The position numbers and the translations under genes are program-made. The notes below the pieces were generated by a model, which was not told where the DNA came from, did not search any database, and worked only from the letters and a program-made list of their open reading frames with translations. From a virus, in IMG/VR virus record IMGVR_UViG_3300002595_000019, positions 19,513 through 83,512 of that record: DNA of 64,000 nt. One strand, given 5' to 3'. How positions within the stretch are numbered: the first letter of the stretch is position 1; each line of letters begins with the position of its first letter. Shown piece by piece: positions 23,631 through 53,897 of this stretch.

Positions 23631-23692
23631 ATAACTTGATATTTCTGCGATAGTACGGGAATATGTCACTACCCAAAAAGCGAGGTGAGTTG

Positions 23693-25255
23693 ATGAAAAA
23701 GATAACGAAAATCGGGGTAAACGAAACCCTGATTCAAAAGAAAAAGCTGAAGGTTGCAGCCTACTGCCGTGTATCCACAGCCAGTGATGAGCAGCTTATC
23801 AGCCTTGAGGCACAAAAGGCCCATTATGAAAATTACATCCGTTCCAATGACGAATGGGAGTATGTGGGTCTTTACTATGACGAAGGAATCACGGGTACAA
23901 AAAAGGATGTCCGTGCCGGACTTCTTTCTATGATTGCTGATTGTGAGGACGGCAAGATAGAGTTCATCATTACCAAGTCTATCAGCCGATTTGCGAGAAA
24001 TACTACAGACTGCTTGGAGATGGTTCGCAAACTGATCGGCCTTGGGGTTCATATTTATTTTGAGAAAGAAAACATCAATACGGGGACAATGGAAAGCGAG
24101 TTGATGCTCTCTATTTTAAGCGGACTTGCAGAAAGCGAATCGATTTCCATTTCAGAAAATACGAAGTGGGCCATTCAAAGACGATTTCAAAACGGAACCT
24201 TTAAAATTTCCTATCCACCCTATGGCTATCAAAACATGGATGGTCAAATGATAGTAATTCCTAAGCAGGCTGAAATTGTAAAGTATATTTTTGCAGAAGT
24301 GTTATCGGGTAAAGGTACACAGAAAGTTGCAAATGATCTTAATCAAAAGGGTATCCCTTCAAAAAGAGGTGGCCGTTGGACGGCTACTACCATTCGAGGA
24401 ATTTTGACTAATGAAAAATATACTGGTGATGTACTTTTGCAAAAGACCTATACTGACAGCCATTTTAACAGGCACACCAATTACGGTGAGAAAAATATGT
24501 ACTTAGTAGAAAACCATCATGAGGCAATTATTAGCCATGAAGATTTTGAAGCTGTAGATGTCGTTCTCAATCAGAGAGCAAAGGAAAAAGGCATCGAAAA
24601 GCGCAACAGTAAATATCAAAACCGATATTGTTTCTCCGGCAAAATCAAATGTGGAGAATGTGGCGGCACCTTCAAGCGTAGGCAGCATTACAAACCGAGC
24701 GGAGATTATGTGGCTTGGACTTGCGGAACGCACCTGGAAAGTAAAAAAGATTGTTCTATGCTTTACATTTCCGATGAGGGCATTAAGTTCGCATTCCTTA
24801 CCATGATGAACAAACTGGTATACGGCCACAATGCGATACTGAAACCGCTCCTGCGAACCCTGCGTGGCATGGATGACAAAGACAGGCTGCTCCGTATTCA
24901 GGAGTTGGAATGCCAAATGGAAGAAAACACTGATAAAAAGCAAACGCTTACAAGCCTTATGGCAGCAGGGTTCTTGGAGCCTGCCGTTTTTAACAAGGAA
25001 AATAATGTACTTGTAGTAGAAGAACAACGTCTGCGTTCGGAAAAAGAGCAGTTGCTGAATTCCGTAGGCGGTGACAAGGTTAAGGTCAAGGAACTCCAAA
25101 GGCTGATGTCTTTTACTACCAAGGGTGAGATACTGACCGAATTTGAGGATGAAATATTCCTCGCCTTTGTGGACAGCATTACGGTTGAATCAAGAAAAAA
25201 GATTATCTTCCATTTGAAATGTGGACTGAATTTAGCGGAAAGGTTGGTGATGTAA
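23693..25255 (+). CDS. Large serine recombinase 1
   Basis: [21 protein letters not shown], Zn ribbon CGECG. Confidence 0.95.
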   Translation: MKKITKIGVNETLIQKKKLKVAAYCRVSTASDEQLISLEAQKAHYENYIRSNDEWEYVGLYYDEGITGTKKDVRAGLLSMIADCEDGKIEFIITKSISRFARNTTDCLEMVRKLIGLGVHIYFEKENINTGTMESELMLSILSGLAESESISISENTKWAIQRRFQNGTFKISYPPYGYQNMDGQMIVIPKQAEIVKYIFAEVLSGKGTQKVANDLNQKGIPSKRGGRWTATTIRGILTNEKYTGDVLLQKTYTDSHFNRHTNYGEKNMYLVENHHEAIISHEDFEAVDVVLNQRAKEKGIEKRNSKYQNRYCFSGKIKCGECGGTFKRRQHYKPSGDYVAWTCGTHLESKKDCSMLYISDEGIKFAFLTMMNKLVYGHNAILKPLLRTLRGMDDKDRLLRIQELECQMEENTDKKQTLTSLMAAGFLEPAVFNKENNVLVVEEQRLRSEKEQLLNSVGGDKVKVKELQRLMSFTTKGEILTEFEDEIFLAFVDSITVESRKKIIFHLKCGLNLAERLVM

Positions 25256-25690
25256 ATGACAGCACATATTCCCTACGGATATCGCATCGAGGACGGAAAA
25301 GCGGTTGTGGATGAAGTCCAGGCAGAACAGGTCAGAACCTTCTTCAAAGAGTATATTTCCGGCAAGGCACTGATGGTGGCAGCCGAAATGGTAGGCTTGA
25401 AGTTGTTCCACGGCAGTGCCGGACGAATGCTCCGAAACACTCATTACCTTGGGGATGAATATTACCCTGCCATCATAGATCAGGAATTGTTCGACAAGGC
25501 AGAAGAGGAACGTCAGTCGAGAGCCAGTCAGCTTGGCAGGGTCAGAGAATTAAAGGTTAAGGAAACACCTGCCGTTCCCCTGCATTTTACAATGGGAAAG
25601 CAGATACAGGAATTTGACAATCCATTCAAACAGGCTGAATACGCCTACAGTTTAATAGAAAGCGAGGTGGAAACGAATGGAGGCAACTAA
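25256..25690 (+). CDS. Short recombinase-domain protein (no catalytic domain)
   Basis: [28 protein letters not shown]. Confidence 0.8.
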
Positions 25691-27248
25691 GAATATTACC
25701 GTAATTCCGGCGCGAAGACGTGTCGGCAATACCGTGAATAAAGAAGTAAAGCCAAAGCTAAAAGTCGCAGCGTACTGCCGTGTTAGTACCGACAGCGATG
25801 AGCAGGCTACCAGTTATGAGGCACAGGTGGAGCATTACACGGATTTTATTAAAAAGAACCCCGAATGGGAGTTTGCAGGAATTTTCGCTGACGATGGAAT
25901 AACAGGCACTAACACCAAAAAGCGTGAGGAGTTCAATCGCATGATTGATGAGGCAATGGCGGGCAAAATCGATATGATTGTTACCAAGTCCATCAGCCGA
26001 TTCGCAAGAAATACCCTGGACTGCCTCAAGTATATCCGACAGCTTAAGGAAAAGAACATTCCCGTGTATTTCGAGAAAGAGAATATTAACACGATGGATG
26101 CCAAGGGCGAGGTTCTACTTACCATTATGGCGAGCCTTGCACAGCAGGAAAGCCAGTCACTTTCGCAGAATGTGAAGTTGGGTTTTCAGTATCGATACCA
26201 ACAGGGACAGATGACTGTAAACCACAATCGTTTTCTTGGATTTACCAAGGATGAAAAGGGGCAGCTTATCATTGAACCCGATGAGGCTGTGGTGGTCAAA
26301 CGCATTTACAGGGAGTACCTTGAAGGTGCAAGTTTGCAGCAGATAGGCAGAGGCTTGGAGGCTGATGGTATTTTGACGGGTGCCGGAAAGAAAAAGTGGC
26401 GTCCTGAAACCCTGCAGAAAATCCTAAAGAACGAAAAATACATCGGTGACGCACTTCTTCAGAAAACCTATACAGTGGATTTCTTGGAGAAAAAGCGTGT
26501 GCCGAATAACGGCATTGTTCCTCAGTATTATGTAGAGAACAGCCACGAAGCCATTATCCCCCGTGACCTTTATATGCAGGTGCAGGAAGAAATGATAAGA
26601 CGTGCCAACCTTCACAGCGGGCAGGAACGAAAAAAGCGTGTTTACAGTAGCAAGTATGCACTTTCAAGTATCGTGTACTGCTCCAAGTGCGGTGACATTT
26701 ACCGCAGAATCGCATGGAACAACAGAGGTAAACATTCCATCGTGTGGCGTTGCTGCACCAGGGTGGAACACGGTCCGGGAGCCTGCGCTGCCGATACGAT
26801 ACAGGAATCCGAACTTCAGAACCTTGTGGTAAGAGCCATCAACATGGCACTCTGCAAAAAGGATACCATGAGCGAAAACTTGCAGAAAAATGTCGAGGCG
26901 GTGCTTACCGGAGCAGACGGCATTCCGCTTGACGAAATTGACAGCCGTTTGGAACAGCTACAAAAGGAACTCCTAAAGGTAGCCAACGCCAAAGGAAACT
27001 ACGATAGCATCGCAGATGAGATTTACCACCTTCGAGAAGTAAAGCAGAACGCCTTGGTGGACAATGCCGAGCGTGAAGGCGTGAAACAGCGAATCAGCGA
27101 AATGCAGCAGTTCCTTGCAGAGCAGACGCAAAATATCACCGAATATGATGAGCAGTTGGTTCGCAGACTGATTGAGAAAATAACGGTCTACGAAGAAAAG
27201 GTTACGGTGGAGTTCAAATCCGGCACAAGCGTGGACGTAAGAAGATAA
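25677..27248 (+). CDS. Large serine recombinase 2
   Basis: [30 protein letters not shown], coiled coil. Confidence 0.95.
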
Positions 27249-27360: not shown

Positions 27361-27397
27361 ATATAATGTTAAAGTGTAAATGGACGGAGGTTATTCG

Positions 27398-27916
27398 ATG
27401 AGAAAAAGTATATCTTTTAATGTAGACGCAGATGTGTTTGATAAATTTAACATGGCGCTTAATCTTTCCGGTGAAACATCTGACGAGGCTGCAGATTCGT
27501 GCCTTCGTTGGTATATTGCCCAGGCTTTCGGAAATGTATCGAAGGAATATACACCGAGGGCAACAAGGGTATCTGATAGTGCAGATAAAGATTTTTACGG
27601 TAAGGCAATTCAACGCATACCAATGTGGGCGTTAAAGCCAAGCCAATATAATCATAAGATAATCAAAGCCTACTTTATGGCAGAACATATCGCAGGAGAA
27701 GCAACCCTGCTGATGATGGAGCGTTTGTGCAGTGATAAAGAACGCCCGGATTTGTATGTTCCTACTTTCAAAAATAACTATTCACAGATGAAACTGGACG
27801 GTCCTAAATCTCATGGTAAGGTTTTTGAGGATGACGGTGACCGAGTTTGGATCTGGGATGAAGTAGAAGAAACCCTTATGAAATATAAGAACAGTTTTTA
27901 TGTAGAGGAGGCATAA
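27398..27916 (+). CDS. Hypothetical protein, possible N-terminal ribbon-helix-helix
   Basis: SD GGAGG; MRKSISFNVDADVFDKF N-terminus. Confidence 0.7.
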   Translation: MRKSISFNVDADVFDKFNMALNLSGETSDEAADSCLRWYIAQAFGNVSKEYTPRATRVSDSADKDFYGKAIQRIPMWALKPSQYNHKIIKAYFMAEHIAGEATLLMMERLCSDKERPDLYVPTFKNNYSQMKLDGPKSHGKVFEDDGDRVWIWDEVEETLMKYKNSFYVEEA

Positions 27917-27918
27917 CG

Positions 27919-29610
27919 ATGAGCGTTTTAATTGATAACAGCATTACGATTTATGAGGCTCTTGAGCATATCAAAGACGGAAAATATGTTATGCCAGCAT
28001 TCCAAAGACAGTATGTATGGAGTATGGAACAGATTGAAAAACTGTGGGACTCCATTCTTTTGGATTATCCTATCGCCACTTTCCTGTTCTGGCACGTGGA
28101 TGATGACAATGTGAGCTGGGACACCTATTTCTGTAATTTCCTGTCTGAGGTTACCTTTGATAGCAGAAAACAGGCTGACAGCGTAAATTATGAATTAAGC
28201 AATATCGATGTTAAGATGACCGATACGGCAGTTCTGGACGGGCAGCAGAGACTTACCTCTCTGTTTTTATCCCTTTTCGGACGTGCCTATATCAGACAAA
28301 AACACGCAAGAAAAAAGATTGTTGGCGGCACGGTTGTAAAATTGCTTATCGAACTGAATAAGCACAAACTGACCGTTGACGAGGAAGAATATAACAGTAA
28401 AAAATATGACATCAAGTTTACTGAGAAGGTAGGTAAACTGAGTCCTACACAATTTGAAATCCGTGAAATCCTCAGTGATAAATTCCGTGACGATACTACG
28501 AGAGAACAAGCCATTGAGTCAGCCATTTCTAATGTTCCGGCTGACAGCAAAGAGTATGCTCGTGATATCCTCAATAAACTGTATAACAAGATTTTTGTGG
28601 AAAAGTTAATCCGCTATACAGAAATCCAGGATATGAAACAAGACGATGCTCTGGAAATGTTCGTCCGTTTCAACAGTGGTGGTAAGGCTTTGAAAAAGCA
28701 CGAAATTACGATGTCCATTTTGGAGGCATATTGGCCTAATGCAAAAACAGAGTTCGGAAGACTGCTCGTAGATTCCTATGTTGGATTCGGTTCTGATTTT
28801 ATCGTTCGTTCTGCCCTTATGCTTTATGGTGATGTTGTAAAATCCAATATCAATAAGCAGATTGCAGAAGACCTCAAAAACAATTGGCAGGATTTTAAGA
28901 AGACCCTCAAGAACCTGGAATCAGTACTGAAAGACATGAAAATTGAGGTCAGCCGTTTTTCAAGTAGTTGGAACGTTCTGTTGCCTATTATTTATTTTAT
29001 GTATTACAACCCGGACTATGCAAATAACCTGGACGGTATTAGAGCCTACTTGATTAGAGCGGTTCTGTTCACTTATTTCCAATCCGGTACCACAAGTAAG
29101 CTGCAGCAGATGAAGAGCAATATCAATGATAATGAATATGAAATCACGGTAGATATGCTTGAGCAGATGAATGACCTGCGTGTAACCGACGGCAAAATTG
29201 ATGATATTATCAATTCCGAAAAAGGTAGCCGTGTTGCGGGTGAGGCACTCTACTTCCTGGGTCTTGATTGGATAAACAAAAACTTCAAGTATGAGCAAGA
29301 CCATCTGCATCCTTATGACAGATTTGACAGTACAAAGCCGATTTCTGTATCTATGGATGATTGGCGCAGATGGCGTGGCAACAGAAACCGTCTGCCAAAC
29401 CTTCAGCTGTTGGAAGGCAGAAGTAATGGTAGCAAGAATGCTATGCGCCTTGTGGACTACTACAACGATATGAATGATGAGCAGAAGGCAGTGTTTCACA
29501 AAGAGGCCCTTATACCAGATGGAGTTTCTCTCGAATTGGAAAATTTCGAAGAGTTCTACGAAAAACGTAAGGAACTGCTAACGGCAAAAATCCGTCAGTT
29601 ATTAGGATAA
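27919..29610 (+). CDS. GmrSD-like protein (DUF262 + C-terminal HNH/DUF1524)
   Basis: MPAFQRQYVWS, LDGQQRLTSL, RFNSGG..L; EQDHLHP..NLQLL...NGSKN. Confidence 0.88.
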   Translation: MSVLIDNSITIYEALEHIKDGKYVMPAFQRQYVWSMEQIEKLWDSILLDYPIATFLFWHVDDDNVSWDTYFCNFLSEVTFDSRKQADSVNYELSNIDVKMTDTAVLDGQQRLTSLFLSLFGRAYIRQKHARKKIVGGTVVKLLIELNKHKLTVDEEEYNSKKYDIKFTEKVGKLSPTQFEIREILSDKFRDDTTREQAIESAISNVPADSKEYARDILNKLYNKIFVEKLIRYTEIQDMKQDDALEMFVRFNSGGKALKKHEITMSILEAYWPNAKTEFGRLLVDSYVGFGSDFIVRSALMLYGDVVKSNINKQIAEDLKNNWQDFKKTLKNLESVLKDMKIEVSRFSSSWNVLLPIIYFMYYNPDYANNLDGIRAYLIRAVLFTYFQSGTTSKLQQMKSNINDNEYEITVDMLEQMNDLRVTDGKIDDIINSEKGSRVAGEALYFLGLDWINKNFKYEQDHLHPYDRFDSTKPISVSMDDWRRWRGNRNRLPNLQLLEGRSNGSKNAMRLVDYYNDMNDEQKAVFHKEALIPDGVSLELENFEEFYEKRKELLTAKIRQLLG

Positions 29611-29642
29611 AACAATCATAAATAGAATGGAGGTGTACCACA

Positions 29643-31181
29643 GTGGCTGATATGAAACAGATACACGATTTCGCTGTGAAATGGTGCGATAAGTTCAGAG
29701 ACCAGAACATAAACTACATAGAACTCGTTGACCACTATATGGCTGACGATTGTGCTGCTCTTGGCTTTGAGATGGACTGTGGTCATGCCTTTTCAGAAAA
29801 ATATAGTAATGCAGCAAATAATCATGAGGCTTTGGATAGGATTATTGATGATGTGACCGATATTACCTTGCTTGGCTCTGCAATCTATTCCCAATGGCGC
29901 TATTTCAATCATTGGGCATACACAGGTGCAGAAATTTTAGAACCACAAAATCGTGCCTGGTTTATTTTGGCGTTAAGCAGATTAGCTATGCTTTCCGGAG
30001 ATAATCCGTTTATCTTCCAAGGAACCCTTAAAAAGATGCGTGTCATTTCTAACAATATTTGCTATGGTCCTATGCCAGAGCCGAATGAAGAAGTGGAACA
30101 GCATTTGACTATCAACAATGAAGGCCGTGTTTGGTTTTCTGGATATAATTTTGGTTGTGGCGGAGAACGATATGAGAAAGCCAGAAGTAAGAACTTCAAG
30201 ATAGACAAAGATGCCACGGACAAGCTGTTTGATGCGATTGCAGCTTATTTTGGCAATGAGTATATGGAAGTTTTCGCTACAGATATTGGTGATTGGGTTA
30301 TGGAACTGACCAATTCTGAAGGAATGACATACAAATTCAGAGGCTCTCTGTGTGCCGACTTCGACTATGAAGGTAAAGATTTATCCGACCTCGTCCGTGA
30401 TACAGTGGGTATGGATGATTTGTATGTGTTTGATGGAAACTGCAAACCGGATGTGATAACAAAAGTCACCTTAGATTACCACAGGCTGACAAAAATTGAA
30501 CCACGACACAAACCGGAAGATGCAGATTGGAAATTTGTAACCTGGGATTATACCGAGCATTTGGTTATCGACAGAGAAACGGAAACATTAGAGCATATTC
30601 AGAATATCGGTACAGGATGTAAGGTTTCACGTAAGTATGAAATCGAAGGCGGAATCGAGAGTCTGCTTGAGAATTTTGATGCAGAAGAGTTGTTTAGTCA
30701 CATCGAAGGAAATCCCGATGATGTAATAGATACACCAAACGAAACCAAGGATTATACAATAACCATCGAGTATAAGAAAAATCCGAGCCGTACCATTGCG
30801 GGTAGCTACGATAAAAATGGTCTGCCGGAGGACTTCGCAGATTTTGCGGAAACGGTGTTTGACTTCATTCGTTTCTATGGTTTAGGAGAAATACTTGACC
30901 CATCAGTTTATGGCAAAGTAAAACGGCGCAAATCAGAATACATCTTTTGCAGCGTTACTTTTGATGAAGGTTACAAGAGTTATTATTATCTGACAGATGA
31001 TGATAGCATTGAAATTGGTGACTTCGTGCTTGTGCCTGCAGGTAAGGATAACCATGAGGCGGTTGTAGAGGTAGTGAATATTGAGTATTTCAGTGAAGAA
31101 AATGTGCCTCTACCTATTGAAAAAACAAAGAGAATCATCCGTAAGTGTACGGACGAGGATTTCGACCCGCCTGTAGCGTAA
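29643..31181 (+). CDS. Multidomain hypothetical protein
   Basis: 512-aa ORF, SD GGAGG, GTG start. Confidence 0.75.
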   Translation: MADMKQIHDFAVKWCDKFRDQNINYIELVDHYMADDCAALGFEMDCGHAFSEKYSNAANNHEALDRIIDDVTDITLLGSAIYSQWRYFNHWAYTGAEILEPQNRAWFILALSRLAMLSGDNPFIFQGTLKKMRVISNNICYGPMPEPNEEVEQHLTINNEGRVWFSGYNFGCGGERYEKARSKNFKIDKDATDKLFDAIAAYFGNEYMEVFATDIGDWVMELTNSEGMTYKFRGSLCADFDYEGKDLSDLVRDTVGMDDLYVFDGNCKPDVITKVTLDYHRLTKIEPRHKPEDADWKFVTWDYTEHLVIDRETETLEHIQNIGTGCKVSRKYEIEGGIESLLENFDAEELFSHIEGNPDDVIDTPNETKDYTITIEYKKNPSRTIAGSYDKNGLPEDFADFAETVFDFIRFYGLGEILDPSVYGKVKRRKSEYIFCSVTFDEGYKSYYYLTDDDSIEIGDFVLVPAGKDNHEAVVEVVNIEYFSEENVPLPIEKTKRIIRKCTDEDFDPPVA

Positions 31182-31226
31182 GCGGAAAATTTGAATTTTT
31201 ATGAGAGAAAAGGATGGCATTGGGTA

Positions 31227-31850
31227 ATGTTAATTTGGTTAATAATAGGATTAGTTGCAGCAATTATTATGTTTGTAGGAGATATGTTGCTCTATTATGA
31301 TAAAAAAGATTATGTGTCAGATGGAACATTTCATACTGTAATATCCTTAATGAAGAATATATCTGATAAGCGGTTATATAGTGGAGGCATTATAGGCCCA
31401 ATAGCTGCTTTTTTATATTGTTTGGGATACATGCATATATTCTATATTATTCCTAAGAGTTGTTTTACGGTATCGGTAATTTGTTTCATGTTATGCAGTT
31501 TGGCTATTGTCGTGGGCGGTGCGTATCATAGCCATTGTTCGTATTTAGGCATTATTGGTAAAATTGATGACGAGAAATCCATGAATTCTGTTATAAAATA
31601 TTTTAGCGCAATAAATATGGTTTCTATGATTTTTCAAGTGATTGGTTTATTGATATTGGCAGTTCTCATTGTTGGTGGATTTACGATATTACCGAGATGG
31701 ATGGTACTATTAACGCCGGGGGTGTTGTATTTACTACTTCCTCTATGGAAGCGTCTGCCTAAAGGAATTCATATTATTGTTTGTGGAGGATGGGCTAATC
31801 TGATTTTTGTAATATATTATATGGCGTTGATTTTATATTATTTTATTTGA
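31227..31850 (+). CDS. Multi-pass membrane protein (DUF6796-like, tentative)
   Basis: About six hydrophobic segments; start uncertain (31191-31227). Confidence 0.7.
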   Translation: MLIWLIIGLVAAIIMFVGDMLLYYDKKDYVSDGTFHTVISLMKNISDKRLYSGGIIGPIAAFLYCLGYMHIFYIIPKSCFTVSVICFMLCSLAIVVGGAYHSHCSYLGIIGKIDDEKSMNSVIKYFSAINMVSMIFQVIGLLILAVLIVGGFTILPRWMVLLTPGVLYLLLPLWKRLPKGIHIIVCGGWANLIFVIYYMALILYYFI

Positions 31851-31931
31851 TGAATTTGAATTTTCGTGATTACTTGTGATATAGGGATTCTGATGTTTAA
31901 CAAATAAAAAGTAAAAAACTATGGAGGATAT

Positions 31932-32681
31932 ATGAAATTTATAGAAGAAGGTTTGAAAGATGCACCAGTGATTATGCTTATCCATGGTATGGGTTGTTCT
32001 GGTGAACATTCATTTAGAAATACTGTGATAAAACTAAAAAACGAATACAGAACCATTATTGTATGCCTTGATGGGTATGACAGCAGTGAATTCCCTTTTT
32101 CTTCAATATCTAATCAATCAGAAAAAATAGCGAAGTATGTCATTGAGAAATATAATGGGAAAATACATTTAATACTTGGAATGTCCATGGGAGGATTTAT
32201 TACAATAGACCTTTTGAGTAGATTTAACATAGAATGCGATAAGGTAATATTGGATAGTGGATACATGAAACCATGGACAAGATTTAATGCAAAAATTATG
32301 TCCAAAATGGTTTCTTGGGGATTTGATAAGTTAATAAAAAGTAAAAGTAATCTAATTATTGAAAAAACAATGCAAACGTCAATGGGATATTGCTTCAAAA
32401 AAGAAGATTTATGTTCTGATGCAACAAAAGTAACGTTAAAGAATAGTGAATATTCATGTCTTACATATCAATTACCAGAACTCTCAAAATTGGAAACTAT
32501 GAGTGTTGAATACTGGTATGGAAAAAAGGATAAGAATATGATTGAAGGAATGAAGGAAATAAAAAAACAACTTCCTAATATGAAAGAGATTTGTTTTGGA
32601 GACTACGGTCATGGAGAATTTATGTTTGAACACCCTGAAGAATACGCTGATATGGTTATTAAATCAGTAAAGAATTGTTAA
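31932..32681 (+). CDS. Alpha/beta hydrolase
   Basis: LIHGMG, GMSMGG nucleophile elbow, YGHGE. Confidence 0.88.
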   Translation: MKFIEEGLKDAPVIMLIHGMGCSGEHSFRNTVIKLKNEYRTIIVCLDGYDSSEFPFSSISNQSEKIAKYVIEKYNGKIHLILGMSMGGFITIDLLSRFNIECDKVILDSGYMKPWTRFNAKIMSKMVSWGFDKLIKSKSNLIIEKTMQTSMGYCFKKEDLCSDATKVTLKNSEYSCLTYQLPELSKLETMSVEYWYGKKDKNMIEGMKEIKKQLPNMKEICFGDYGHGEFMFEHPEEYADMVIKSVKNC

Positions 32682-32748
32682 GTGGCTAAATGAGAGTTAA
32701 CTTTCAGTAATACAAAGAGAAAGCTTTGAAGTTGGTGGTGATTTATAA

Positions 32749-33114
32749 ATGGACTTAAAAGCAAGAGCAAAGAAATTGAAAACGGATATACCTGCTTTGT
32801 TTTTAACATTAAAGGATAAGGATACACCGATACTTGCAAAAATATTTGCTGGAATAACAGTGGTGTATGCGTTGTCACCAGTTGATTTAGTTCCTGATTT
32901 TATACCTGTGCTTGGATATTTGGATGATGTAATTCTGTTACCAATGCTAGTTGCATTAACAATTAAATTTGTTCCAAAGGATGTGCTTGAAAGAAATCGT
33001 AAGCAAGCAGAAGGTATGTGGAGGGATGGCAAACCTAAGAAGTGGTGTTATGCTATTCCGATTGTAATGATATGGATTTTGATAATAGTATTGATACTGA
33101 AAGTAGTTATGTAA
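32749..33114 (+). CDS. YkvA/DUF1232 family membrane protein
   Basis: YALSPVDLVPDFIPVLGYLDD. Confidence 0.9.
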   Translation: MDLKARAKKLKTDIPALFLTLKDKDTPILAKIFAGITVVYALSPVDLVPDFIPVLGYLDDVILLPMLVALTIKFVPKDVLERNRKQAEGMWRDGKPKKWCYAIPIVMIWILIIVLILKVVM

Positions 33115-33146
33115 GTAGAATTTGAATTTGACGGAGGTAATATTGT

Positions 33147-33560
33147 ATGTGGTTTGTATTCGCGTTACTGTCTGCAATATTTGCAGCACTTACCTCTATA
33201 CTGGCAAAGGTCGGCATAGATGGAGTAAACTCAAATCTTGCAACTGCAATCAGAACTGTTGTGGTTGTAGTTATGGCTTGGGGAATGGTGTTTTTGACAA
33301 ATGCACAAAATGGTATAACAGAAATTAGTAGAAAGAGCTGGATATTCTTAATTTTGTCAGGCTTAGCAACAGGAGCTTCTTGGCTATGTTACTACAAAGC
33401 ATTACAGATTGGGGATGCGTCAAAAGTTGTACCGATAGATAAATTAAGTGTAGTAATTACTTTAGTATTGGCATTTGTGTTTTTACACGAAGAGTTTACA
33501 ATTAAATCGTTGATAGGATGCATTTTGATTGGAATAGGAACATTGATAATGGTTTTGTGA
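33147..33560 (+). CDS. EamA family small transporter
   Basis: LAKVG..VNSNLATAIRT, YYKALQIG.ASKVVPIDKLS. Confidence 0.9.
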   Translation: MWFVFALLSAIFAALTSILAKVGIDGVNSNLATAIRTVVVVVMAWGMVFLTNAQNGITEISRKSWIFLILSGLATGASWLCYYKALQIGDASKVVPIDKLSVVITLVLAFVFLHEEFTIKSLIGCILIGIGTLIMVL

Positions 33561-33589
33561 TTTTTACATAGAACAGAAAATTTCAGTTT

Positions 33590-33647
33590 TATGGATATGT
33601 TTCCACAAACGACTAAACAACGGAAAAGGCTATGGATATGTTCCCAC
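33590..33647 (+). repeat. 17-bp direct repeat TATGGATATGTTYCCAC (att-core-like, mimics rlmD DMFP codons)
   Basis: Copies at 33590-33606 and 33631-33647. Confidence 0.8.
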
Positions 33648-33782
33648 GCTCGTAAAATCAGCAAAGACATTCAGCCTATCCTATCGAGCCACGTTGAGAC
33701 GTGCGTACTACTATATAATAAAGAATATTACGAGAAGGAAGTTAAGGGGAAAGTGAAGGCTGAAGTGGTGACGGAAGTATAA
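33591..33782 (+). pseudogene. rlmD: Displaced 3' end of 23S rRNA m5U methyltransferase gene, interrupted by att scar
   Basis: MDMFPQT-[~25 aa insert]-HVETCVLL matches the RlmD/RumA C-terminal VDMFPHT.HVE.V.LL motif. Confidence 0.7.
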
Positions 33783-33802
33783 ATCGATATTTATGTATTA
33801 TA

Positions 33803-33836
33803 AAGGGCATCTAGTTTTACAGCTAGGTGCTTTTTT
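33803..33836 (+). terminator. Terminator after rlmD remnant
   Basis: GCATCTAG / CTAGGTGC stem + TTTTTT. Confidence 0.8.
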
Positions 33837-33887
33837 AGTGCGTAAATAACAGAATGTCAATATAATTCCATTAATTTCATAAAAGTA

Positions 33888-33938
33888 ATTGACTTAGACA
33901 ATAAATAGTACTATAATAATTATATTGACTTAGACAAT
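33888..33938 (+). promoter_or_regulatory. Sigma-A promoter with two identical 15-bp operator-like boxes
   Basis: TTGACT(33889)-17-TATAAT(33912); ATTGACTTAGACAAT at 33888 and 33924. Confidence 0.8.
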
Positions 33939-33957
33939 TTTTTAGGGAGGTGGATGA

Positions 33958-34551
33958 TTGTTAGGATTAGAATACATTTTAGGTTTGTATAATATGCAGC
34001 ATATAGAACTGGCAGAAAAATTAGGAATAAAAAAGCAAAATATAAACCTTTGGATTAAAGGAAAACAAAATATTCCTAAAAAATATCTCCCTGTACTAGA
34101 AGAGCTTTTTGGAATAGATAAAGAGTATTTTATTAAAGAGTTGACTGAAATAGAAAAGTTGGAAATTCAAAAAGAAAAGTTAAAAAAAGATTTGAAACCA
34201 GTTATCAAAAGCCATGAACAGCAGTTTATGATTGGAGAGATTAATGACTTAGTAGAAGTACCGATATATGATAAAGAAGAAATGAATACCATTGAGCGAA
34301 ACATCGAAAAGGCAAAGCTCGTATCAAGATTTAAAGAAGCACTAGATATTATTGATAATAATCCATATATGGATACATATAAGCTGATGATAGAGTTGTT
34401 AGAAAAGGTTCAACATGAGGTGGTTCTCCATAAGACCATTGAAGCATTAGCCCATTATTATGAAGTATTACCAGACTGGGTGGTGAGTGAACCTGAACAA
34501 GAAGAATTTGAGGAAGAACTATTTGAAGTATTTGATGATCATAATTTTTAA
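33958..34551 (+). CDS. XRE-family HTH transcriptional regulator
   Basis: [24 protein letters not shown]. Confidence 0.85.
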
Positions 34552-53016: not shown

Positions 53017-53048
53017 GGACACACCAAATGAAGGAAGGGTGTGTCTAT

Positions 53049-53897
53049 ATGCTTGATTTAAGCGGTTTTGAAGTATATTTAAAGAGCCAAGAACGCAGTA
53101 AGAATACGAATAGCTGCTATATTCGGGACAGTAAGGCTTTTATTGAATGGTATGGCAGCAGGACGGATTGTGGTCTTGATAAACTAATTGAACTGGATGT
53201 AATTGAATATAAGAAGCACTTACTTAGCACCAGCGAATCGGTGGTTACAGCTAATAGGAAGATTGCCAGCATCAATGCCTTTTGCAAATGGCTCTATGAA
53301 AGCGGAACAACTCCTGAAGAAGTTTCGATTAAAGCAGTAAAGAATCGGGATGCTCGCCAATATAAAGGCTTGCAGGAAAGGGACTTGAGGAGACTACGAG
53401 CCGAGATACACAGAAACAGGAATAAAATGCATATCTGCATCATTGAAATACTGCTTGGCACAGGACTTCGGGTAAGTGAACTTTGCAATATAAAGCTTAA
53501 GGATATTGATATATCCGAACGCAAAGGTTCTATAAAGGTTATTGGAAAAGGGAATGTTAACAGAACGCTACCATTAAATAAGGATGTCAGAAAAGCAATC
53601 CAAGAATATCTTGCAGTAAGACCAAAGGATGACAGTGACTTCCTATTAATAGGGCAGCGTGGAGCTTTGAAGAGGAATGCTATCAACCTTATTCTTGAGA
53701 AGTATGGTAAGAGAGTTTCAGTTGAAGTGACACCGCATAGCTTAAGGCATACGCTTGGATATAAGCTGGTCAAGGAAGGAACAGCAATTACTACCATTCA
53801 GCAGATACTCGGTCACGATAACATAATGACCACAAGCCTTTACACAGTCACAACCGAGCAAGATATGAATAATTCCTTAGAAGCACTGGAGTGGTAA
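53049..53897 (+). CDS. XerD-like tyrosine recombinase
   Basis: TGLRVSEL, HSLRH, LGH..I.TT.LY. Confidence 0.93.
   Translation: MLDLSGFEVYLKSQERSKNTNSCYIRDSKAFIEWYGSRTDCGLDKLIELDVIEYKKHLLSTSESVVTANRKIASINAFCKWLYESGTTPEEVSIKAVKNRDARQYKGLQERDLRRLRAEIHRNRNKMHICIIEILLGTGLRVSELCNIKLKDIDISERKGSIKVIGKGNVNRTLPLNKDVRKAIQEYLAVRPKDDSDFLLIGQRGALKRNAINLILEKYGKRVSVEVTPHSLRHTLGYKLVKEGTAITTIQQILGHDNIMTTSLYTVTTEQDMNNSLEALEW

Follow-up and report, generated by a model that had tools for sequence, protein, structure and literature searches.

We analysed a 64,000-nt stretch of DNA (the window), bases 19513–83512 of a 96-kb contig from a viral collection (IMG/VR record IMGVR_UViG_3300002595_000019), and here we focus on its segment 31185–33589, which is best read as four promoterless, co-oriented mobile cassettes occupying a recombination slot at the right end of a prophage with serine recombinases (prophage 1). 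This array forms the final 2.4 kb of prophage 1 and abuts its attachment (att) site. Comparison with other loci shows that the cassettes are discrete units that exchange at a six-base core. This segment is probably best explained by an integrase-less cassette array belonging to a widespread integron-like system of Lachnospiraceae and related anaerobes, with a mechanism that can be proposed from the junctions and an Xer-like enzyme as its likely partner. The system is apparently undescribed: no description of it was found in the open-access literature, in Rfam or in the plasmid and phage collections PLSDB and INPHARED, which agrees with the preliminary description of this DNA, whose author knew of no named system with such a signature.

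The preliminary description, made from the letters alone, had noticed four functionally unrelated, AT-rich genes in one orientation, each flanked by a short quasi-palindrome, and these observations hold. The genes encode a DUF6796 protein, an alpha/beta hydrolase, a DUF1232 protein and an EamA protein (Table 1), and the GC content drops from ∼0.40 to 0.31–0.34 at the first copy of the motif. The 11-mer AATTTGAATTT is found on the + strand at 31188, 31853 and 33119, with no further copy in either the 64-kb window or the 96-kb contig, each copy starting 3–6 nt after a stop codon (stops at 31181, 31850 and 33114); the first copy (31186–31199) is a perfect 6-2-6 inverted repeat. Two variants with a TC centre, at 32699 and 33578 (16–17 nt past the stops at 32681 and 33560), are genuine sites as well, and the fifth copy touches the att core as had been claimed, ending at 33589 where the first rlmD 17-mer begins at 33590. 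All five sites fall within the ∼10% of the stretch that is non-coding, and they delimit units of 667, 846, 420 and 459 bp. No promoter or terminator consensus was found between the cassettes. Also as described, neither an integron integrase nor attC is present: there is no tyrosine recombinase in or adjoining the array, and the junctions do not have the lengths and cores of attC. In a check of motif frequency, 0.36 copies are expected per window and three are seen, a number that 2 out of 100 shuffles reach; the decisive support for cassettes is the comparative evidence, rather than motif statistics.

Table 1. Features of the window in and around the cassette array (G-type and C-type sites have TTTGAA and TTYCAG cores, respectively)
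Feature	Position	Strand	Remarks
Phage structural and lysis genes	1–23300		GC ∼49%
Large serine recombinase genes of prophage 1	23663..27248	+	530 aa, 144-aa fragment-like open reading frame, 523 aa
GmrSD-type gene and two genes of no assigned function	27380–31181		GC ∼41%
Last backbone gene of prophage 1	29643..31181	+	512 aa, no Pfam family
Junction 1, G-type	31185..31199	+	core TTTGAA 31190–31195, perfect 6-2-6 palindrome; phage flank to cassette 1
Cassette 1 gene	31227..31850	+	DUF6796 membrane protein, 207 aa
Junction 2, G-type	31852..31863	+	core 31855–31860
Cassette 2 gene	31932..32681	+	alpha/beta hydrolase, 249 aa
Junction 3, composite	32697..32733	+	C-type TTTCAG 32702–32707, 17-nt spacer, G-type TTTGAA 32725–32730
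Cassette 3 gene	32749..33114	+	DUF1232 (YkvA-like), 121 aa
Junction 4, G-type	33118..33129	+	core 33121–33126
Cassette 4 gene	33147..33560	+	single-domain EamA transporter, 137 aa
Junction 5, terminal C-type	33578..33589	+	core TTTCAG 33581–33586; CAG onward is the constant phage/att flank (Q)
rlmD att region	33590..33782	+	two att-like 17-mers, then displaced rlmD 3' end (HVETCVLL...)

Exact look-ups of the hydrolase and EamA proteins retrieved dozens of contigs with quite different neighbours. Within the collection, 47 blocks list the identical hydrolase, which has at least eight different contexts, and 63 blocks list the identical EamA protein, with integrative and conjugative element (ICE), phage and chromosomal contexts. 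The arrays are located in phage genomes, in chromosomal loci, in the region behind a DUF4368 serine recombinase gene and in ICE transfer operons, where the cassettes lie between a VirB4-like gene and an NlpC/P60 gene. When window positions 30900–34000 were aligned with the loci recovered via the two proteins, homology to 16 other loci (L numbers below) was bounded by copies of the motif, with a DNA identity of 99.7–100% in 11 of them and ∼95% in the other five, which carry a diverged EamA cassette with the same flanking motif. The shared segment runs from 31185/31187 to 33129–33136 in six loci, from 31846–31853 to 33134/33135 in three and from 33118/33119 to 33578–33589 in three, and at every junction of these loci the core is on the coding strand. 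Homology with L007–L012 starts at junction 1 (31185–31187), that with L004, L006 and L010 at junction 2 (31846–31853), and junction 4 is the place where the homology of L004–L012 stops and that of L013, L016 and L019 starts (contigs of other runs also end there, at 33119 and 33129).

The partners of individual cassettes vary accordingly. Cassette 1 has six different left partners and is gained or lost exactly between motif copies (e.g. L011 compared with L004); the 3' end of cassette 3 is joined to five different downstream cassettes; and at junction 5 seven different cassette ends precede one and the same CAG-plus-rlmD flank. Junction 3 behaves differently: the third motif copy, a genuine site, is to be refined to a composite of a TTTCAG core (32702) followed by a TTTGAA core (32725), and it was never a breakpoint among the sampled loci. 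The earlier reading of the units as single genes needs one correction here: a composite junction does separate the hydrolase and DUF1232 genes, but the two were found together in every sampled context. Across 60 loci compared all-against-all (the sampling was steered by cassettes and by the recombinase described below), 337 clusters of homology breakpoints were counted, and 36% of them are no more than 10 nt from a core, versus 3.3% for random positions; the remaining clusters are mostly in genes or at TTCCAG variants outside the core count. A single cassette end may have up to six different neighbours, and at least two partners were found for 36 left contexts and 33 right contexts.

The slot itself is equally informative. 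The 3' flank of the 512-aa gene, GCGGAAAA, is its constant left flank (P), and in other samples at least eight distinct arrays lie between the identical last backbone gene with its flank and the same rlmD att flank. Alternative cargo includes a GyrI-like gene, a NUDIX gene with an S66 peptidase gene, and at least five further arrays, ranging from 0.4 to >7 kb. In the seven slot arrays whose right end was reached, the left junction reads flank-TTTGAA-cassette, and at the right junction cassette-TTYCAG leads into the rlmD att flank, which is identical throughout. The preliminary description had proposed capture and stacking of cassettes at a short quasi-palindrome, and had named inheritance of the four genes as one fixed block, with breakpoints elsewhere, as the outcome that would speak against it; what we observed is other orders and contexts with breakpoints inside the motif, and one phage site with at least eight arrays. 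All nine metagenome matches to the backbone flank are occupied, and no unoccupied slot was found among them. Three joints between 31198/9 and 33576–9, whose sides are only 28–30 nt long with unread content between them, are read as other arrays in the same slot and not as an empty site. A second recurrent array start (L004, L006, L011, L041, L056 and L058) is a flank ending in ATAGGGAACAGAAA, ∼165 nt past a gene for a 796-aa DUF4368 serine recombinase; it is another class of landing site.

Arrays are present in isolate genomes, complete ones included, so they are not assembly chimeras, and the sequence identity at a junction (12–14 bp) is shorter than the word sizes of assemblers. In digester and landfill metagenomes, used as assembled contigs only, the sequencing depths of backbone and cassettes are decoupled (∼175 versus 4 in one run; in run X5, 137 for EamA versus ∼8 for its neighbours), and contig ends coincide with junctions. 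A scan of viral contigs with the junction pattern gave eight matches, about three of which resemble real cassettes, the others probably being chance matches in coding sequence; a stricter pattern gave none in the Roseburia inulinivorans genome and one uninformative match in the Roseburia faecis genome. The array DNA had no match in PLSDB or INPHARED.

We collected 107 distinct G-type and 130 C-type instances of the site. The conserved part spans ∼13 bp, consisting of an A-rich left arm, the 6-bp core and a KTT right arm, and a ribosome-binding site usually follows 5–25 nt downstream. First and internal junctions have the core TTTGAA and the last junction of each array examined has TTYCAG, i.e. 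the arrays have a fixed polarity. Among junctions that share one side only, position -1 and everything leftward go with the left partner, and position +7 and everything rightward with the right partner, which puts the crossover inside the 6-bp core. Within the core the exchange is best placed between bases 3 and 4, as judged from few informative cases: one cassette end was seen with TTTCAG twice and with TTTGAA once, the phage right flank keeps CAG while the cassette ends vary, and one cassette retains TTC in two contexts. In about one fifth of the G-type junctions, the composite ones, TTTGAA is preceded by a TTYCAG core and a spacer. Their commonest spacer is 30 nt long, and its first part forms a 9–10-bp hairpin with the C core (12 sequence variants were found); the two core regions of a composite site are imperfect inverted repeats of each other. 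This composite hairpin site was found in 11 out of 301 sampled Lachnospiraceae genomes and in none of the reversed control, and Rfam has no family for the site.

These junctions can be accommodated by a simple scheme, in which a circular cassette with one TTTGAA site would recombine with a TTYCAG target. The left product would then be flank-TTT/GAA-cassette and the right product cassette-TTT/CAG-flank, so that the target would be restored for the next capture. Since the two cores are unlike at positions 4 and 6, a full two-strand tyrosine-recombinase reaction would meet heterology, and single-strand exchange with replicative resolution would be the most economical chemistry. Xer-dependent integration of CTX phage proceeds in this manner, by single-strand exchange and replicative resolution, and integrons also provide a precedent for single-strand exchange resolved by replication (PMC3458562). 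The putative catalyst is a 323-aa XerA-like tyrosine recombinase encoded together with RelB-ParE; it would have acted in trans here, as the contig lacks it. The cassettes of the window may be expressed by read-through from the upstream phage genes.

The gene for this recombinase, followed by RelB-ParE, was found inside two of the arrays recovered through the hydrolase, and 316 blocks of the collection list the identical protein. In all ten displayed places it is inside a long co-oriented array of small unrelated genes with RelB-ParE next to it, in chromosomal as well as ICE contexts. The protein scores 231 bits with an XerA-type model (cut-off 220) and 68 bits with the integron integrase model TIGR02249 (cut-off 265); among solved structures, XerA and XerD are the closest to it, and it has intact catalytic motifs. 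TTYCAG is directly upstream of the recombinase gene in 21 out of 22 modules, and TTTGAA comes directly after parE in most of them. The module ends resemble both ends of the 30-nt composite spacer, so the recombinase and RelB-ParE genes appear to be nested in one composite site; at junction 3 of the window, the 12 nt following the TTT of the C core match the flank of the recombinase module at other loci. The G-type 9-mer is found 58 times on the + strand and five times on the - strand around members of the clade, compared with 40 and 51 times around relatives of 59–67% identity. One 65%-identical relative, the one whose surroundings were examined, is encoded in a type I restriction locus of Lactobacillus johnsonii ATCC 33200 (L080:6924-15488), between hsdM and hsdR, a location that makes the cassette clade a sister to hsdS-shuffling enzymes.

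Members of the close clade come from Roseburia, Agathobacter, Suilimivivens, Bariatricus and other Lachnospiraceae, among them type strains and one complete genome; cultured strains that carry it are Roseburia inulinivorans DSM 16841, Roseburia porci and Suilimivivens aceti. Among the 301 sampled Lachnospiraceae genomes it is present in four (one copy has two in-frame TGA codons), and the composite site is found in two of these four genomes versus nine out of 297 genomes free of the recombinase (hypergeometric p about 0.007). We also observed several peculiarities of the module. A near-consensus promoter-like sequence, TTGACT-17-TACAAT, which contains a GTAACG/CGTTAC inverted repeat, lies between the recombinase gene and relB (L007:1078-1116, L034:8972-9027); judging by its sequence, it is possibly an autoregulated promoter that might also drive downstream cassettes. 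The ribosome-binding site of the recombinase gene is within an ACTCCTT/AGGAGT hairpin. In two metagenome-assembled genomes the gene is broken by a ∼55-nt GC-rich insertion in the same codon region (L063:10854-10910, L064:788-844), perhaps a small mobile insert or else an intervening sequence. The copy in Roseburia faecis JCM 17581 (G001:C1:2414094-2415062, L051) is 98% identical and, with two TGA codons in frame, probably inactive. The Xer-like gene of the window itself (53028–53897) was considered as a candidate and rejected, with just 32% identity over 148 residues.

Several observations weigh against the scheme and its catalyst. The 323-aa recombinase is absent from the 96-kb contig; nine of the 11 genomes with composite sites, and most of the arrays found through cassettes, are without the clade, so the recombinase could be a passenger with a host enzyme as the actor. 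The assembled contigs showed no circular cassette, no empty target and no excision joint, and exact-pattern scans of viral contigs for the predicted empty phage site and for the internal EamA junction gave no match. By core type, 22 cassette ends are G-only, 13 are C-only and one is mixed, so the rule that the core follows the right partner depends on few cases. Classical tyrosine recombinases, moreover, do not cleave at the centre of a palindrome.

The absence of the recombinase leads to an alternative that we regard as unlikely, though it fares better than any other: the cassettes are real, host XerC/XerD or another housekeeping tyrosine recombinase moves them, and the 323-aa recombinase is a mere passenger cassette. 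The arrays would then resemble the pdif modules of Acinetobacter plasmids or Xer-exploiting integrative elements. The lack of a dedicated recombinase in cis in most arrays, the one of the window included, and the composite-site genomes without the close clade are in keeping with it, and the candidate is itself Xer-like, so related host enzymes might bind similar sites. The module is, however, unlike an ordinary cassette, as it has a target-type core upstream and the most diversified junction: 25 distinct left partners at its upstream end, the maximum in the data set, albeit a count inflated by the choice of loci for the recombinase. Furthermore, all sites are direct, unlike those of pdif modules, and the 12-bp site is probably unlike the dif sites known from Firmicutes.

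The preliminary description had suggested that the neighbouring serine recombinases might move the cassettes. An explanation in which large serine recombinases (either those of the prophage or the 796-aa DUF4368 type) make their cuts at the central dinucleotide draws on the position of such genes 4 kb upstream of the array here and directly upstream of the arrays in L004, L006, L011 and L041, on the asymmetric 2-bp centre of the site, and on the fact that the array adjoins a serine-recombinase att site. Serine recombinases normally need identical central dinucleotides in both partners, whereas the left centre of one array is TG and the right one TC (or CC in L128); many arrays have no serine recombinase within 6 kb, and the rlmD att repeats are a sequence family separate from the cassette sites. 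We therefore did not retain the suggestion, and consider it very unlikely that these enzymes are the movers; those of the window (23663..27248) are probably the rlmD integrases and not the cassette enzyme.

It is less probable still that the cassettes travel by a single-strand route free of tyrosine recombinases, with a hairpin-guided HUH/Rep nuclease or with template switching during conjugative or rolling-circle replication. The conserved hairpin with a core 11 nt later does resemble IS200/IS605-type ends, arrays are carried by elements that pass through single-stranded DNA (e.g. in ICE transfer operons), and a Rep-like gene adjoins one array (L020); but about four fifths of the junctions have no hairpin, no HUH gene recurs near the arrays, and no enzyme apart from the tyrosine recombinase is repeatedly bracketed by cores. 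The notion that there is no cassette system at all, the motif being an operon expression signal and the mosaics a product of homologous recombination, decayed rlmD tandem elements or misassembly, deserves hardly any credence: the motif does lie just ahead of ribosome-binding sites, and the window does show genuine tandem accretion at rlmD, but >100 distinct junctions share merely 9–12 bp (too short for RecA or for assembler words), the same units are found in isolate and complete genomes, the rlmD motif is not re-created at the four junctions, breakpoints are enriched about tenfold at cores, and one slot holds eight arrays.

The arrays share with integrons, and with sedentary chromosomal integrons especially, compact, mostly promoterless and co-oriented cassettes of unrelated function, which have the site at their 3' end and shuffle between arrays, as well as toxin–antitoxin cassettes and a division into cassette-type and target-type sites. 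The tyrosine recombinase gene may likewise adjoin the preferred insertion site. A point-like crossover that tolerates heterology is also common to both, and some of the sites are foldable imperfect inverted repeats. Unlike in integrons, the recombinase is XerA/XerD-like and not IntI, its gene is co-oriented with the cassettes and has cassettes on both sides, and the sites are 12–14 bp long (∼50 bp with the hairpin) with TTTGAA/TTYCAG cores instead of GTTRRRY; judged by junction length and core, they are not attC sites (57–141 bp, R''-L''/L'-R', GTTRRRY). The present system occurs in Firmicutes, in which complete integrons have not been found (PMC4889954). The array of the window is similar to clusters of attC sites lacking integron-integrases (CALINs) in having cassette sites on a mobile element with no cognate recombinase in cis, but its sites are not attC and it adjoins a phage att site.

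Short Xer-type sites also bound small gene modules in pdif modules and CTX phage, and one-strand exchange with replicative resolution, as in CTX, would explain how unlike cores recombine. The pdif sites differ in being 28 bp long (11-6-11), in alternating orientation and in using host XerC/XerD; here the conserved part is ∼13 bp, 58 G-type sites lie on one strand against 5 on the other, and there is a dedicated recombinase module. The hsdS shufflons of the PsrA/CreX type (PMC7096588, PMC4948785) likewise use short repeats, and relatives of the candidate at 59–67% identity are common, the one examined being that between hsdM and hsdR; the shufflon enzymes invert hsdS segments between inverted repeats, whereas in our arrays the repeats are direct, no hsdS is near the close clade, and whole genes are captured and lost. 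Tandem accretion at the 3' end of rlmD/rumA is a further comparison, as the array lies exactly at such a site with two att-like 17-mers; the cassette junctions have no rlmD repeat, however, and the same cassettes occur far from rlmD, e.g. in ICE transfer operons.

A broader proposal, on which our own judgement is evenly divided, is that this is a second, independently evolved integron analogue in Gram-positive anaerobes of guts and digesters: a recombinase related to Xer and hsdS-shufflon enzymes, nested with RelB-ParE in its own composite site, would join a 12-bp TTTGAA cassette site to a TTYCAG target and seed integrase-less arrays on phages, conjugative elements and chromosomes.

The surroundings of the array have some features of their own. 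The two att-like 17-mers (33590–33606 and 33631–33647) are 41 bp apart, and no such 17-mer is found at the four cassette junctions; together with the split rlmD end, the pair fits the view that prophage 1 and the next element accreted in tandem. This accretion is independent of the cassette junctions, and the rlmD att region is the boundary to the next element, outside the cassette system. The C-terminal motif of RlmD is interrupted by ∼50 nt of foreign sequence ahead of HVETCVLL, and the second element starts at 33958, its first genes encoding a type I restriction system. On the other side of the array, the three genes at 27380–31181 encode a 172–178-aa protein, a GmrSD-type nuclease and the 512-aa protein without a family; they move as a unit, and in L025 and L030 they are preceded by other genes, which points to a mobile defence module. 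Within the array, the longest open reading frame of cassette 1 opens at a TTG (31191) inside junction 1, whereas the calls elsewhere use the ATG at 31227; the longer version is probably not real (in L009 the open frame extends further upstream, and a protein of 236 aa was called).

Cassettes near the recombinase (L033–L042, based on Pfam assignments only) include genes of the aminoglycoside-phosphotransferase, beta-lactamase-fold, ABC-F, GNAT, MFS and chromate-transporter types. Toxin–antitoxin pairs in the recombinase arrays are MazEF, Phd-Fic and RelB-ParE, and related arrays further carry methyl-transferases, NUDIX enzymes and efflux-type transporters. Such cargo makes the system relevant to the travel of accessory and resistance-type genes among gut commensals, phages and digesters. 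The shuffling of small accessory genes in Gram-positive anaerobes has lacked a comparable explanation, and a cassette system that follows site rules of its own would close this gap. A recombinase that acts on a 12–14-bp site could also serve genome engineering, and the cultured strains carrying the clade make the system testable. For the Lachnospiraceae themselves, it would account for the hypervariable ends of prophages and for the variable segment of ICE transfer operons.

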